Virus record (IMG/VR): IMGVR_UViG_3300020045_003074
Span: 1-27,140 of that record
Source: a virus
Lineage: Duplodnaviria; Caudoviricetes
Direction: 5' to 3' (one strand)
Length of the DNA stretch: 27,140 nucleotides
The number at the start of each line of letters is the position of its first letter. Position 1 is the first letter of the stretch. The notes below the pieces were generated by a model that worked only from the letters and a program-made list of their open reading frames with translations, did no database searches and was not told where the DNA came from. Positions 1 to 21,535 of this stretch are shown here, one piece after another. The translations under genes were made by a program, and so were the position numbers.

Positions 1-20
1 ACTTGTGTTCTATTCTTCAA
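1..20 (-). CDS. Probable start of a further cassette ORF (TTG, MKNRTQ...), truncated by the window edge
   Basis: GGAG RBS followed by TTG just inside attC-1 on the minus strand, the same layout as the other cassettes. Only 6 codons are visible. Confidence 0.35.
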
Positions 21-43
21 TTTATCGCACTCCGGTTTGTTTC

Positions 44-122
44 AGCTAACAAGGCGTAGCAACATCACTACACTTCGTTTCGTTCGACACGCTTCGCGTG
101 CGGTTGTACATGGGCGTTATGA
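44..122 (+). repeat. attC site 1
   Basis: R'' AGCTAAC (44-50), spacer AAGGC, L'' GTA[G]CAAC pairing with L' GTTGTAC, R' GTTATGA (116-122). Internal hairpin CACGC-TTC-GCGTG. Confidence 0.85.
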
Positions 123-380
123 CTCAAGCTCGAACACATGAAAAACTAAATCGCCATTCTGCAACTGGAACGTTGAAATGTATTTGCCGAGGTTGCTGGG
201 CATAGGATTACCAGTCCCGTAAATAGCTATTTTTCTAGTGCATTTTGCGCTGCCTTCAATGCACATAAACCACAAGACAAGATCATCTTTTTGAATTTGA
301 CTTGTCAAAATCGTAGCGCCAGCGGGGATTTCAATATTTTGTCTATCTCTTATTTGCAGTTTTACTTTCCAAATAACCAT
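117..380 (-). CDS. Cassette ORF, 87 aa conserved phage hypothetical protein (DUF7352-like)
   Basis: Pattern IWK..L....Q.I.IP.GA.IL..Q.Q.....LW...R.I.IYGTG.P....YI.T.Q...G.LVFHVFE recalls a widespread small phage family. Stop TAA overlaps R' of attC-1. Confidence 0.8.
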   Translation of the reverse strand: MVIWKVKLQIRDRQNIEIPAGATILTSQIQKDDLVLWFMCIEGSAKCTRKIAIYGTGNPMPSNLGKYISTFQLQNGDLVFHVFELES

Positions 381-406
381 TTTTAAATCTCACTTCGTTG
401 GGTTAG

Positions 407-490
407 TCATAACCAGTCGCAGCAACGGACGGGTCAAGAATTTCGCACTTTTCTGGCTGTTAAAAGCCGCCGTTGTGCTCGGCGTTATGC
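407..490 (+). repeat. attC site 2
   Basis: R'' TCATAAC (407-413), spacer CAGTC, GCA[G]CAACGG[A]CGG pairing with CCGCCGTTGTGC (two extrahelical bases), spacer TCGGC, R' GTTATGC (484-490). Confidence 0.9.
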
Positions 491-676
491 GTATTGAGCG
501 CACGCTTCACAGCAGCGGTTATTTTCCATACCCTTGTAAGGCGGCGGAACAAACTGTTTTCCGCAATCAAAACATTCGCGGCTTTCGTGTAGTTCTTTTG
601 GGTCGCACACGCTGCAACCGCTACACCCTCTCGCCGCACATTGAAACGCAGTTCTTTTTTCGTGGTCATGCTGCAT
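485..676 (-). CDS. Cassette ORF, 63 aa Cys-rich putative zinc-binding protein
   Basis: AGGA RBS. CxxCxxC, CFDC and CEAC motifs. TAA overlaps R' of attC-2. Confidence 0.7.
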   Translation of the reverse strand: MQHDHEKRTAFQCAARGCSGCSVCDPKELHESRECFDCGKQFVPPPYKGMENNRCCEACAQYA

Positions 677-702
677 AATTCAGTTTCCTATCGTAGTTGT
701 TT

Positions 703-788
703 GCATGACAAGGCGTTCCAGCACGGATGCCGCAAGAATTCGCCTTGTAGTTGTTTTTGTTCTGGCACCGCTGAACTCGGCGTTATGA
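703..788 (+). repeat. attC site 3 (R'' degenerate)
   Basis: R'' GCATGAC (AAC changed to GAC), spacer AAGGC, GTTC[C]AG[CA]CGG[A]TGCC pairing with GGCACCGCTGAAC, spacer TCGGC, R' GTTATGA (782-788). Confidence 0.85.
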
Positions 789-974
789 CTATTCAGTTTC
801 AAAAGTTTCGCCACACGAATTGCAGCGGTAAATATCCAATCGAGTTTTATCTGGCTTGTGAAACACATTGCAACCACAATTACATCTATAAGATTTACCA
901 GCAAGATTCACCATGAAGCTTTCAAGCTTCCCATCTTCTGTTTTTACTGCATTTTTATATCTATCAAAATGCAT
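789..974 (-). CDS. Cassette ORF, 61 aa zinc-ribbon-like protein
   Basis: GGAG RBS. RCNCGCNVF...YRCNSCG zinc-ribbon pattern. The ORF fills the cassette. Confidence 0.75.
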   Translation of the reverse strand: MHFDRYKNAVKTEDGKLESFMVNLAGKSYRCNCGCNVFHKPDKTRLDIYRCNSCGETFETE

Positions 975-993
975 ATATCACTCCGTTAATTGG

Positions 994-1077
994 TCATAAC
1001 AAAAAGTTGCAGCCGATGGAATCACCAAAGGCTATTTAATTACCCTCATACAGCCACGCCTGAACTTGGCGTTAAAT
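994..1077 (+). repeat. attC site 4
   Basis: R'' TCATAAC (994-1000), spacer AAAAA, GTT[G]CAGCCG[A]TGG pairing with CCACGCCTGAAC (one mismatch), spacer TTGGC, R' GTTAAAT (1071-1077). Confidence 0.85.
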
Positions 1078-1080
1078 TGT

Positions 1081-1287
1081 TTAGCAGGTTACTTTTGGCA
1101 AAGGTAGATCAGGGTTTGCCAACCAAGGAGCTTTTTCGTATTGGCTTGGTTTTTCTTGGCTTTGAGTCTTTAACTCAAGCTCTTTAATTTTTGCGGTTAG
1201 CCGTTCTTTTGAGAATTCCACAAATGGAGTATTTGGCGCTGTTCTGAAACAAAGCACTCCGTTTACAATAGCTTCTTCGTAGTACAT
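1081..1287 (-). CDS. Cassette ORF, 68 aa phage hypothetical protein (MYYEEAIVNGVLCFRTAP...)
   Basis: GGAGAG RBS before ATG at 1287. The upstream TTG at 1308 lies inside the attC, so 1287 is the preferred start. Confidence 0.75.
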   Translation of the reverse strand: MYYEEAIVNGVLCFRTAPNTPFVEFSKERLTAKIKELELKTQSQEKPSQYEKAPWLANPDLPLPKVTC

Positions 1288-1299
1288 ATTATCTCTCCA

Positions 1300-1385
1300 A
1301 TTTAACAAGTCGCTGAAAGAGCGACGGAATTAGAATTTTACATTAACGTGGCCTTGGTGTGCCGCGCTTTAGCTAGGCGCTATCT
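1300..1385 (+). repeat. attC site 5 (array-terminal, R' degenerate)
   Basis: R'' ATTTAAC (1300-1306), spacer AAGTC, GCT[G]AA[AG]AGCG[A]CGG pairing with CCGCGCTTTAGC, spacer TAGGC, R' GCTATCT (GTT changed to GCT). Confidence 0.85.
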
Positions 1386-2235: not shown

Positions 2236-2985
2236 ATGAACGAAGTCACAATACAACAACAATCGGCTTTGCCAGTAGTGAGCAAAGAAACAGATATGAT
2301 GATGCAATTAATACAACAAATTGCGTTAAATCCTGATATTCCTGTTGAAAAGATGCAAGCTGTTATCAACATGAAAATGCAAGTTTTTGATAAGAATGCA
2401 GAAATCGAATACAACAAGGCAATGATACTTGCACAGCAGGAAATGCTGCCAGTTATTAAAACTGCTAAGAATACGCAAACAAGCAGCACTTACGCAAAAA
2501 TGGAAAACATAGCCAAGCAATGTAAGCCGATCTGGACTAAACACGGCTTTGCTTTACAGTTTGGCACCGCTGACTGCCCTATTGCAGAACACTACCGCGT
2601 TACCTGCGAAGTGTCTCATGCGGCTGGATTCAATAAGAAGTATCAGGCTGATTTGCCTGTTGACGATGAAGGCATTAAGGGACAAAAGAACAAAACAGGT
2701 TGCCACGGTTTTGGCAGCACAATGTCTTATGCTCAGCGCTATCTAACAATCATGATCTTCAATATCACTCTTGAAGGCGCTGATAATGATGGTAATAGAC
2801 CACCACAACATCCACAGCAGCTACCAGCCAGACAAAAAACGCCAATATCTGATTCAAAGTTTGCAGAAGTAATTTCAAGAATTAAATCAGGCGAGGTCAA
2901 TATTCTTCGGCTAACTATTAACCATGAATTAACAGCGCCACAAAAAACAATCCTTTTATCAGAATTCCCTGAGGCTCAAATATGA
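2236..2985 (+). CDS. erf: ERF-family single-strand annealing protein
   Basis: YAKMENI...KPI...HGF, HAAG and the GSTMSYAQRY.....FNI motif are typical of the Erf domain. Confidence 0.85.
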   Translation: MNEVTIQQQSALPVVSKETDMMMQLIQQIALNPDIPVEKMQAVINMKMQVFDKNAEIEYNKAMILAQQEMLPVIKTAKNTQTSSTYAKMENIAKQCKPIWTKHGFALQFGTADCPIAEHYRVTCEVSHAAGFNKKYQADLPVDDEGIKGQKNKTGCHGFGSTMSYAQRYLTIMIFNITLEGADNDGNRPPQHPQQLPARQKTPISDSKFAEVISRIKSGEVNILRLTINHELTAPQKTILLSEFPEAQI

Positions 2986-3635
2986 TCCGGTGCAGCTCGA
3001 TTGACAAAATAATGACTAATCCTCAGAAAAAGACTGAGGAGTTTTCAGAAACCGCTAAGGGCGCGATGATGGAAACCGTTAGAGAGATTTTATTCGGTGT
3101 GCGCAAAAACTTGGACGATGTGCAAGCAATTCAAAAGGGGCGCATGTGTGAGGATGCTGGAATCCAACTTTACAACGATGTTTTTTTGTATGACCTGAAA
3201 AAAGTCGAGAGTGACGGACGCCGAAACAATGGCATCATCACAGGAGAGCCTGATTTAGTCGCTGCGCACTCTAAAAAGGGCGTTGATATAAAGGTGGCTT
3301 GGTCATTGCTAACGTTCCCCTTGTGCGCTGAGGATGCCGACAAGAAGGGCTATGAGTGGCAGGCTAGGGGCTATATGTGCCTGTTTGACTTGCCTGAGTG
3401 GGAGATAGCCTACTGTGCAATAGATACGCCCGATGAGCTTTTAAAACCTTGGGATGATCGCACAATCCATACGATTGACAGCGCCATACCTGCGCACCAC
3501 CGAATCACAGTGGCGCGCTATACCCGCGATATGGACATAGAGAAAGCCATGCTAGACAAGTGCAAAAAAGCCAACATATGGATTGAAAACGCGGTTAAAC
3601 AGTTCGCCACTGAGCACGACCAATACATTAAATAA
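2982..3635 (+). CDS. Lambda-exonuclease/YqaJ-like PD-(D/E)XK exonuclease
   Basis: IRCSSI, KG..CE, ITGEPD, DIK and YEWQARGYM motifs. Coupled to erf by an ATGA overlap. Confidence 0.85.
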   Translation: MIRCSSIDKIMTNPQKKTEEFSETAKGAMMETVREILFGVRKNLDDVQAIQKGRMCEDAGIQLYNDVFLYDLKKVESDGRRNNGIITGEPDLVAAHSKKGVDIKVAWSLLTFPLCAEDADKKGYEWQARGYMCLFDLPEWEIAYCAIDTPDELLKPWDDRTIHTIDSAIPAHHRITVARYTRDMDIEKAMLDKCKKANIWIENAVKQFATEHDQYIK

Positions 3636-4699: not shown

Positions 4700-5188
4700 A
4701 TGTCAGGCGTAAATAAAGTCATCATCGTAGGCAACATCGGCCAAGACCCTGAAGTGAAATACATGCCTTCCGGCGGCGCGGTTACCAACGTCAGCATTGC
4801 CACCTCAGAAACCTGGAAAGACAAAGCCACAGGCCAACCGCAAGAGCGTACCGAATGGCATCGCGTGGTGTTCTTTAATCGCTTGGGCGAAATCGCGGGC
4901 GAATATTTGAAGAAAGGCAGCAAAGTTTACGTTGAAGGTTCTCTTCGTACTCGAAAATGGCAAGCGCAAGACGGCACTGACCGTTACACCACTGAAATTG
5001 TAGCCAGCGAGATGCAAATGCTGGACGGGAAAAGTGATCGCACGAATGAAGCGCAACAGCAATCCGCGCAATCTGGCCGCGTAGTTACTGATTTTGGTAG
5101 TGGCCACTCGGAATCAGGATTAAGCCGCACACAAATAGCCCAACCACCAGCGGGCTTTGACTCATTCAATGACGATATACCGTGGTGA
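4700..5188 (+). CDS. ssb: Single-stranded DNA-binding protein
   Basis: [17 protein letters not shown]...ATSETWKDK...TEWHRVVFF...[14 protein letters not shown]. Acidic tail DDIPW. Confidence 0.97.
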
Positions 5189-5196
5189 GGTGAAAT

Positions 5197-5364
5197 ATGC
5201 TAGCAGACGAACTACCAGAAATAATCCACAACGTAAAAGATACGCAATTCAGTATTGCGCGCCATTACGGTGGGGTAAAAATTAATGGACACATGTACAT
5301 CTATAACCCAAAAGATGACACGTTGATAAAGTCAATCGGAAAAGTTGAGAGAAAAAAGAAATGA
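5197..5364 (+). CDS. 55 aa hypothetical phage protein, absent from the ORF track
   Basis: GAGGTG RBS. Translation MLADELPEIIHNVKDTQFSIARHYGGVKINGHMYIYNPKDDTLIKSIGKVERKKK. Its stop overlaps the next ATG. Confidence 0.75.
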   Translation: MLADELPEIIHNVKDTQFSIARHYGGVKINGHMYIYNPKDDTLIKSIGKVERKKK

Positions 5365-5663
5365 TGATTCAAATTAGAGAAGAAGAGCTAAAGAAGCTCA
5401 AAAACAAACTGAATAACTATAGGCAGCAAGAGCGAACACGCGCAAAAAAACTGGAGGCGGCCAAAGAAAAAGCTGCATTCAACGACACAGATAAATTAAT
5501 AATGGTAGAAGGAGTTCTTTTGCAGGTTTTAAATAAGCCAGACTTGGCTATCATCACTCAAATTGTCTTTTCAAAATTACAAGATGATGAGTTTTGGAAC
5601 AAACACAAACACGACTCAATCGAAAAGATAAACAAAGCGCTGAAAATGTCGGTGATGAACTAG
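5361..5663 (+). CDS. Hypothetical protein, 100 aa
   Basis: ATGA coupling to the upstream ORF. Ends at a terminator. Confidence 0.65.
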   Translation: MMIQIREEELKKLKNKLNNYRQQERTRAKKLEAAKEKAAFNDTDKLIMVEGVLLQVLNKPDLAIITQIVFSKLQDDEFWNKHKHDSIEKINKALKMSVMN

Positions 5664-5681
5664 CCCCTTTCGGGGCTTTTT
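5662..5681 (+). terminator. Intrinsic terminator between convergent early and late operons
   Basis: AGCCCC-TTTC-GGGGCT followed by a T run. Confidence 0.8.
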
Positions 5682-6837
5682 ACAATCCTGGTGATGTTAG
5701 CCCGCTAGAAGTAAAACCGGATGAGGTTAGGCCGGCAGATGTTAAGCCACCGCTTACAACCACGCCGCCGCCATCGGTTATCGTGACTCGGTAATAATAC
5801 ATTTTACCAGCATCCGCACCGCCAGAAACCCATAGCCATAGGTCAAATGAGCCTGCATTTGTAGTGCTGAAATCTGTGCGCGGAAGAACAACTAAATCCG
5901 ACATACCGACCGGAACAGTGTGATACATCACATCGCCAGACGATACGATTCTTCCAGTAGCTAGTTTTATCGCTCCGCCGATTGTGTTTGAGTTCGACGT
6001 TATCGGGTTTAATGCCTCCACATCGGTAAAGGTTGCATCAGCCTCAAGCGTGGTTGATGCAACAGCCGATGCGCTTCCATCGTCAAACGTTAGCGATAGA
6101 TCGCAGGGAACCATTGGGTATAATGCACCATCAACCCACGGCGAAATTGTTGCACTAGTATCGGCAGTGATACCGCTCACAGTAACGCCAGCTTTATCTG
6201 TGGTGATTGATGTTATACCGGTTAATCCGGAAGTGGTAAAATCGAAAGCACCCCCGACAATCACAGGTTCATCTATCGAATCAATAGAAGCTCCAAATCC
6301 CTCAACCGTAAACGAGTCAACAAAATCAGTAGCAGCTTGCCTCCCATGAATTCCAACTAAATTACTAGACGCTAGCGTCACTAGCGGATCAATATTTATC
6401 AATCCCGTTACGTTAACGCCATCTTTTTGTGCTGTCAGCCTATTCGTTATCGCATCATAGATTAGCGATAATGATCCACTAGAGAAAAACGATACGGCAA
6501 CGCTCGCAAGAAGTGTGAATGTGCCAGCAACGCGCTTAAATAATTGCAGCTCGCTGGAGTCGTAGCGAAGGCAGAAAAAGTTATCAATATCGATAACATT
6601 AACGCAGCAGACCATCGAGCTGCTTTGTCCGCCGCTTGCGTAGACTGTAGTGATTTTATGACTGGCAGATCCCGCATTCATTGTTGCTAACGAATGACTT
6701 CCTGTCGATATAGTCAAATAACCATTGGCATTTACAACCAGTTCACCTACCGACCCAAAGGCTCTCGTTATTCCTACCACAGACCCAATATCAGTACCGT
6801 TGGCATAGCCATTTAAACTGTATATTGTTGTTGCCAT
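5680..6837 (-). CDS. 385 aa beta-rich accessory or structural protein with C-terminal GLTS repeats
   Basis: Long Gly/Ser/Thr/Val-rich ORF, lectin/beta-sandwich-like N-terminal half, coupled to the upstream gene. Confidence 0.75.
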   Translation of the reverse strand: MATTIYSLNGYANGTDIGSVVGITRAFGSVGELVVNANGYLTISTGSHSLATMNAGSASHKITTVYASGGQSSSMVCCVNVIDIDNFFCLRYDSSELQLFKRVAGTFTLLASVAVSFFSSGSLSLIYDAITNRLTAQKDGVNVTGLINIDPLVTLASSNLVGIHGRQAATDFVDSFTVEGFGASIDSIDEPVIVGGAFDFTTSGLTGITSITTDKAGVTVSGITADTSATISPWVDGALYPMVPCDLSLTFDDGSASAVASTTLEADATFTDVEALNPITSNSNTIGGAIKLATGRIVSSGDVMYHTVPVGMSDLVVLPRTDFSTTNAGSFDLWLWVSGGADAGKMYYYRVTITDGGGVVVSGGLTSAGLTSSGFTSSGLTSPGL

Positions 6838-21187: not shown

Positions 21188-21535
21188 ATGAACAAACAAA
21201 CAAAATTTGCTATTTTTTCATTAGCTTTTTCAATACTTGCTTTCTTTGTTGCGGCAAATTCAAAAGCTGATTGCGATGAAATCTATTTCAAAGTGGGCAC
21301 AGGCTATAAGTTTGACGAACAAACAAAAATCAGGCTCGATAGAGATAATAGCCGTGTTTACGAAATTGCCAACAGCCCTTATAGCGCAAGATTTGAAACA
21401 GGTGTTGAATGCGGGAATCTTACCTATGGACTGAGCCACCATTCGCAGTGGTCAACTGGAGCGCCATTTAATAAGACTGGCGAATACTATAAAACAGAGA
21501 TTTTTATAGATTATAAATTTTCGTGGAGTATTTAA
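21188..21535 (+). CDS. Moron: exported beta-strand-rich protein, 115 aa
   Basis: Sec signal peptide ending ANSKA, amphipathic beta strands, aromatic C-terminus (IDYKFSWSI), AT-rich, opposite strand to the late operon. Confidence 0.78.
   Translation: MNKQTKFAIFSLAFSILAFFVAANSKADCDEIYFKVGTGYKFDEQTKIRLDRDNSRVYEIANSPYSARFETGVECGNLTYGLSHHSQWSTGAPFNKTGEYYKTEIFIDYKFSWSI

Follow-up and report, generated by a model that had tools for sequence, protein, structure and literature searches.

The DNA analyzed in this study is a 27,140-bp phage record (Caudoviricetes; IMG/VR IMGVR_UViG_3300020045_003074), hereafter the window, which is a whole contig with an estimated completeness of ~69%. Its left end carries an array of integron attC sites (44-1385) in which four small cassette genes all run antisense to the sites. 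Judged from sequence comparison, this stretch is the promoter-proximal end of a mirror-image cassette array, which is probably an integrase-less phage integron array served in trans by the integron integrase (IntI) of the host. By definition it is a cluster of attC sites lacking integron integrases (CALIN), as it contains five attC sites (≥2 are needed) and no neighbouring intI. It is a CALIN that works like an integron without being a complete one, and it breaks the usual gene orientation. Elsewhere, the contig has genes for head, connector and ejection proteins of podovirus type, genes for lysis, and an early region with Erf, exonuclease and ssb. An initial annotation of the window had placed integron attC sites in a podovirus-type phage; this observation was confirmed by an anatomy scan and a bacterial covariance model, and its interpretation was upheld in part. 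What it had missed are the inversion of the genes, the host-type attI at the promoter-distal end of relatives' arrays, and the likely Cellvibrio host.

All five attC sites have the + strand as their top strand: site 1 at 44-122 (79 bp, core G at 116), site 2 at 407-490 (84 bp, core G at 484), site 3 at 703-788 (86 bp, core G at 782), site 4 at 994-1077 (84 bp, core G at 1071), and the terminal site 5 at 1300-1385 (86 bp, core G at 1379). Each of the five shows the inverted boxes R''-L''-variable loop-L'-R' with an extrahelical base in L'', sites 3 and 5 being off by one base each. The earlier description of five sites with full attC anatomy stands for the number of sites, which two methods recovered, and fails in that site 3 (R'' variant TGAC) and site 5 (R' = GCT, overlapping the stop codon of the adjoining anchor gene) are not textbook. 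The anatomy scan of both strands of the 27,140 bp found these five attC sites and no others, with 0.05 hits per shuffled window (100 shuffles). A covariance model trained solely on 40 bacterial attC sites, a check of the kind that the initial annotation had suggested, found the same five sites on the + strand (30.8, 44.1, 36.1, 33.4 and 18.9 bits for sites 1 to 5; next best hit, 11.3 bits) and had zero matches on the - strand of the window. The predicted probability of the recombinogenic bottom-strand fold was 0.62 for site 2, 2e-5 for site 3, 0.88 for site 4 and 0.03 for site 5, and folding without constraints gave the attC hairpin for sites 2 and 4 only. The second suggested check, bottom-strand folding, is hence favourable at sites 2 and 4 and poor at sites 3 and 5.

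Measured between core G positions, the four cassettes have the lengths first given for them: 368 bp (cassette 1, 117-484), 298 bp (cassette 2, 485-782), 289 bp (cassette 3, 783-1071) and 308 bp (cassette 4, 1072-1379), all on +. Read from the sequence, the starting core of each cassette is the reverse complement of its own inverse core (4/4; exact in cassettes 1, 3 and 4, one mismatch in cassette 2). The end part of a fifth cassette occupies 1-116 (+). Since the contig ends inside this cassette, the array is truncated, and its left end, where relatives have attI, lies beyond the break. All four open reading frames (ORFs) are on the - strand, i.e., the attC bottom strand, so that the canonical gene layout is found in 0/4 cassettes; their stop codons lie in or ≤10 bases from a core, and their starts just past the inverse core. 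ORF 1 (117-380, 87 aa) belongs to DUF7352/phrog_3848 and has homologues in 37 phage records, ORF 2 (485-676, 63 aa) is cysteine-rich with no family match, and both have their stop codon inside the core. ORF 3 (789-974, 61 aa) is a zinc-ribbon-like member of phrog_5768, and ORF 4 (1081-1287, 68 aa) has no family match and is unmatched among annotated phages, with 11 metagenomic homologues. The cargo is thereby phage-type (DUF7352/phrog_3848 and phrog_5768), as had been proposed. The claim of one ORF per cassette with its own ribosome-binding site holds clearly for ORFs 3 and 4; the site is shorter (AGGA) for ORF 2 and weak for ORF 1. The array abuts the anchor gene (1380-1550, -), a conserved small phage gene of 56 aa that contributes the last core through its stop codon. 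A candidate sigma-70-like promoter (1578-1606, -; 10/12 match) points towards this gene and the cassette genes. Location is its sole support, since the scan yielded no more promoter matches in the region than chance would (4 found, 4.6 expected); the same limit applies to divergent promoter-like sites at 1578-1638.

Among the units compared, exact complementarity between the core of site n and the inverse core of site n+1 was seen in 98/113 units, and pairing within a site was found at 23/144 sites. It has to be considered that the hairpins might act at the RNA level, as terminators or processing sites between early genes, and merely resemble attC. They do sit between co-transcribed small genes, and bacterial attC sites have been proposed as terminators (PMC8876359). 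However, the partner of an inverse core is the core at the opposite end of its cassette, ~300 bp away, rather than the other half of its own hairpin, no Rfam match was obtained, and the bacterial attC model recognises all five sites. This explanation is the least probable of those considered here and extremely so, though the hairpins may have a secondary RNA role.

To return to the mirror-image array, its layout was compared between phages and bacteria. Scanning viral contigs with two patterns yielded 40 and 19 loci, and the first pattern gave 126 loci in bacterial genomes (from 17 of 64 collection parts). Orientation was called with the same scanner and a longest-ORF rule, and units with more than one core mismatch were left out (10 viral, 19 bacterial). 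The viral units were inverted in 125/132 cases and canonical in 5, whereas the bacterial units were canonical in 145/168 and inverted in 18; as this window served as the model for the patterns and the phages are relatives of one another, these counts are not unbiased frequencies. In an enlarged phage set of 169 units, including the window's four and phage-type contigs binned in bacterial genomes, 161 were inverted and 5 canonical by longest ORF. The integrons of the host genus contained 76/100 canonical units and 17/100 scored as inverted, and the latter look, by eye, like cassettes without a real gene. Because the core/inverse-core test is symmetric and cannot tell orientation, the calls rest on the extrahelical base, the bacterial model and the bacterial control. 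The bottom strand is predicted to fold better than the top in 110/161 phage units. The arms of 37/169 phage attC sites are ≤2 mismatches from host-genus arms, compared with 1/169 for other bacteria.

The arrays occupy different operons, sometimes two per genome, with flanking genes co-oriented with the cassette genes. Three genomes (G009, G028 and G003) contain two separate inverted arrays each, and each array has its own attI-like end. Moreover, an inverted array including a DUF7352-like cassette was observed in a G+C-rich phage with other attC arms (L012 in G004), so the layout reaches beyond this host group. At three further loci (L009, L019 and L044), 233-aa DNA methyltransferase-like genes appear, by eye, as inverted cassettes, echoing the methyltransferases noted by Qi et al. 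(PMC9892861).

The second line of evidence is the site at which the arrays begin. When the leftmost cassette was traced to its start, 29/37 arrays were found to begin at a conserved non-hairpin site with a common pattern ending in, for example, AATAAACT directly before GTT. The remaining 8/37 had no attI-like end, and most of these ended in an attC missed by the scanner. An IHF-like motif lies upstream of the attI-like site in 18/29 cases, compared with 12% of random stretches. A profile of 30 phage-type attI-like sites was scored beside intI in 34 host-family loci: it reached 14.9-24.1 bits in 10/12 integrons of two related Cellvibrio IntI clades and ≤3.9 bits in the other 22, against a background of 25,341 GTT sites with a 99.9th percentile of 6.8 bits. 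The selection rule for these sites fixed their last bases, and the conserved columns -11 to -21 lay outside it. The first cassette was traceable in five of the 12 integrons of these clades, where it was canonical or core-matched. Two relatives with the window's anchor, G039 and L219, have the attI-like site. In addition, a phage-type array binned in a host-genus genome (L270 in G144:C54; also L280 and L282) starts at a site that is near letter-for-letter the attI of one host IntI clade. The usual layout, with a Pc promoter upstream of attI, is absent, and the candidate promoter is at the opposite end; as the cassette genes face attI, a Pc there could not express them. A LexA-type box is absent before 5/7 intI genes of the best-matching clade, and SOS control of the enzyme is therefore not assumed.

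No phage-encoded enzyme for these sites was detected. As first stated, no integrase was found among the proteins encoded in the window, and there is no intI beside the array either in the window or in complete relatives. The tyrosine recombinase domain PF00589 was found in 4/33 and 0/10 virus records, and none of the four positive contigs passes the IntI model (bacterial control, 389 bits). Serine resolvase and reverse transcriptase were absent from 5/5 records examined. Two relatives rated 100% complete, G039 and G037, contain none of these three enzyme types; HUH enzymes and small proteins without annotation were outside the search. These results do not support the suggested integrase to the left of the window: tyrosine recombinases are absent from complete relatives that have the same anchor, and the four found in 33 other contigs are not IntI. 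It could still be argued that another recombinase, from the phage's missing 30% of the genome or from a helper element, acts on the sites, given that the window contig is ~69% complete and that a phage integrase lies within ~1 kb of an array in two contigs. Against this, G039 and G037 have arrays while carrying none of the enzymes sought, the integrases near arrays fail the IntI model, and the phage end site matches the attI of a host IntI clade. We consider such an enzyme quite improbable. As relatives have no enzyme of their own and yet carry a close likeness of the host attI, the phage likely borrows the integron enzyme of its host; the other suggestion of the initial annotation, a host IntI in trans, is thus the best-supported one and probably correct.

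The host-family sample comprised 277 genomes in the family of G045 (Cellvibrio sp.). Positions 1-1700 of the window were matched in six of them, and a profile of the anchor gene found none in the 277. One match is a spacer in an array of clustered regularly interspaced short palindromic repeats (CRISPR) of G117, which belongs to the same genus as G045. It is identical at 31/32 positions to a protospacer at 680-711 (-) with CC at its 5' flank, and from its repeat we take the CRISPR array to be of type I-F. Among the 39 spacers of G117, 10 match a co-binned podovirus that carries an inverted array and has 11 proteins in common with the window. The target at 680-711 is a leader common to several phages' cassettes, so what the spacer connects with the host is the pool of cassettes rather than this phage alone. 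Besides the spacer, the window's ssb (4700-5188, +) is 89-93% identical in DNA over ~320 nt to the chromosomal ssb of six host-genus genomes, four of which supplied integrases of the matching clade. Because of the CRISPR spacer and ssb, the host is likely Cellvibrio, a genus in which IntI exceeds the cut-off in 38/61 genomes. Within 4700-5030, the ssb is 93% identical to some chromosomal copies of the host genus vs 87.5% to that of the relative G039, which suggests recent exchange with the host.

Two further observations concern the spacers. The base at 707, which spoils the inverse core of site 3, is the sole mismatch to the host spacer (protospacer position 5), and related contigs carry the canonical base there; this change could represent CRISPR escape at the price of a weaker attC. 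One spacer in the CRISPR array of G117:C3 (L253, L267) matches the attC bodies of four phage records over 24-31 nt, so attC families that occur in several phages may often be targeted by CRISPR.

Another reading is that the phage captured part of a host integron passively and that this part is now inactive, or that host DNA was misassembled onto a phage contig. Captured host integron pieces in phages have been published (PMC9892861), two of the five sites here are degenerate, and no raw reads cross the exact array. On the other hand, the cargo is phage-type, no phage cassette protein was matched in 100 host cassettes, the host arrays are canonical with long attC, and the junction between site 5 and the anchor gene recurs in independent contigs. 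This explanation is largely refuted, and we judge it highly improbable.

The relatives also show how the array varies. L219, whose Erf-exonuclease stretch is 92% identical to that of the window, carries three different cassettes before the same anchor, and identity begins at 1376, three bases before the terminal core. G039 is a long-tailed phage whose anchor protein is 96% identical and which has nine attC sites at the anchor; G037 and L220 have the anchor gene without a site behind it. Contigs from eight sequencing runs (run matches to the window being contigs only) show site bodies followed by other sequence right after GTTA, as well as other attC bodies joined at 1385. The prediction that relatives would vary at the core is thus borne out by L219, G039 and the run contigs; some contigs diverge within the left arm instead. 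The terminal core is GCT in the window and GTT in some relatives. Ten pairs of cassettes share a gene (≥80% identity), three of them deriving from one trio; all ten keep the same core and differ in neighbours on both sides, and in 9/10 their own attC is more alike than the other flank. Genes that are 89-97% identical carry unrelated attC bodies in G008/L221 and G032/L254, the change in the former starting right after the inverse core. This swapping is not explained by plain IntI shuffling, in which a gene would retain its attC body. Multi-gene units of 480-1210 bp also lie between cores in L219 (reverse, 5310-6520) and G039 (2609-3088), and in some of these a long gap between genes may contain a promoter. 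G039 and the short-tailed window have the anchor gene, lysis genes and array locus in common, indicating module exchange across virion types.

These patterns bear on a third alternative, in which IntI built the array and present exchange proceeds mainly via the phage's own homologous recombination, with attC arms as short linkers. Genes for an Erf-like annealing protein and an exonuclease (2236-3635, +) lie 850 bp from the array, attC families are common to different phages at 80-97% identity, genes often switch attC bodies, and divergence in some contigs falls inside the left arm rather than at the core. However, linker homology alone would not maintain the core/inverse-core pairing (98/113 exact) together with a one-sided extrahelical base, nor a host-type attI at 29/37 arrays. 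We think it unlikely that this route predominates, and the Erf-type and IntI routes can coexist.

Under the proposed host-IntI model, the host enzyme would fold the attC bottom strand, here the coding strand, and excise cassettes by attC x attC recombination; cassettes would enter at the promoter-distal end through attC x attI recombination. Transcription from a phage promoter near 1600 would cover the anchor gene and then all cassette genes, so that position would not be silencing, unlike in bacteria. Two rationales for the inversion may be suggested. First, host integron cassettes include anti-phage functions (PMC12614218), and host cassettes, including such ones, would be antisense if they landed in a phage attI; conversely, phage cassettes would be antisense in a host integron, which would keep two pools apart on one enzyme. 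Second, location of the bottom strand on the lagging-strand template favours excision (PMC5371416), and if the genes run with the replication fork, the bottom strand would be that template. A broader proposal is that such arrays are widespread "counter-integrons": a copy of the host attI without an integrase, a host IntI hijacked during infection, a private mirror-image cassette pool, inversion as a firewall against host defence cassettes, and attC-body swapping as a sign of cassette making. We regard this wider proposal as evenly balanced between right and wrong. The phage cassette pool in our small sample comprised 168 proteins in 151 families.

Several points weigh against the host-IntI interpretation. 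Its support comes from the comparison of contigs and sequences. Sites 3 and 5 combine weak predicted folding with non-canonical boxes, and the predicted fold probability is lower in phage sites than in host sites (median 0.17 vs 0.59). At 84 bp, against 131 bp in the host genus, the phage attC sites are short, and they fall into families of their own. Own attC identity reaches ≥0.70 in only 2/10 shared-gene pairs, and a 97% identical gene carries unrelated attC bodies. The viral sample was drawn with window-modelled patterns, and its units are not independent. Three members of the attI set, which was picked by a loose last-bases rule, come from contigs that had been binned with host-genus genomes. 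The break in the contig leaves the window without its own attI, which is assigned to it from relatives. With respect to the host, the spacer target is a shared cassette leader, and G117's own IntI has an internal stop.

Compared with the sedentary chromosomal integrons of Cellvibrio, the phage array has the same attC anatomy, cassette-specific core pairing, attI sequence and attC arm families. It differs in having no intI, genes antisense to attC, and attI at the promoter-distal end, as well as attC of ~84 vs ~131 bp and cargo that is not common to both in the compared sample. Unusual orientation within an integron has a parallel in the reverse integrons of Treponema denticola, in which the integrase gene is reportedly flipped relative to the array and the genes are canonical to attC. 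IntI can also place cassettes outside integrons at attG sites with GWT cores, where resident promoters express them (10.1101/2022.09.11.507474). On the opposite strand, a stop codon with a C after it has the sequence of such a core, a point of likeness to attG insertion; in contrast to it, the relatives carry a conserved, dedicated site resembling attI, their arrays are long and ordered, and the terminal GCT does not fit GWT.

Closest to the present array are the 17 phage CALINs described by Qi, Rajabal, Ghaly, Tetu and Gillings in 2023 (PMC9892861), which likewise are attC clusters without an integrase. Five of six phage attC sites tested there recombined with IntI1 and attI1, with the bottom strand preferred, and two attC sites of phage PH101 recombined with IntI1 with the same preference. 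When we checked the orientation of published phage arrays, PH101 and ctTUS972 were inverted, as here, and TJE1, placed by short motifs, was canonical; the attC covariance model missed TJE1 and P12002L, and no attI-like end was recovered for PH101. That study treats phages as carriers of cassettes between bacteria, and the portions of its text available to us make no remark on antisense genes, attI in virulent-phage CALINs or a host-clade match, although its figures may draw the inversion. No description of inverted phage cassettes with a host-matched attI was found in the full-text literature searched, most subscription papers being outside the search. Phage attC clusters are therefore already published, and what appears to be new is the inversion together with the host-matched attI.

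With regard to the remaining features, the families of ORF 1 and ORF 3 also occur as plain genes without attC in other phages. Such attC-free loci were found in Felix O1 (ORF 3; one low-score scanner call lies 500 bp away), a Vibrio phage, an unclassified siphovirus and seven viral loci. Scans of viral contigs by single protein gave one locus for Erf, none for ORF 1 and seven for ORF 3, with no attC at these loci. A BLAST search of 1-1700 returned, among phages, only Felixounavirus-type ORF 3 homologues and a few short matches and, among plasmids, only chance hits. The anchor protein has no Pfam match over the cut-off, and its resemblance to ribbon-helix-helix proteins (feature look-alike score 0.87) is only a lead. 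A 115-aa gene at 21188-21535 (+), with a signal-peptide-like start, opposes the structural operon and adjoins the capsid gene; it has no family match and a 57% homologue in G030.

It is known that IntegronFinder 2 does not detect attI outside class 1 (PMC9024848), and the host-matched phage attI escapes standard software. The same phage genes exist free (Felix O1, Vibrio phage) and as cassettes with differing attC bodies, which offers a handle on cassette creation, and phages may be the source of inverted cassettes obtained by amplification from environmental DNA. Since the host genus is culturable and the enzyme, attI and attC can all be named, the claim is testable with existing assays. Integrons have been seen as bacterial tools and, more recently, as reservoirs of genes directed against phages; here, phages appear to use the host integrase for a cassette economy of their own.

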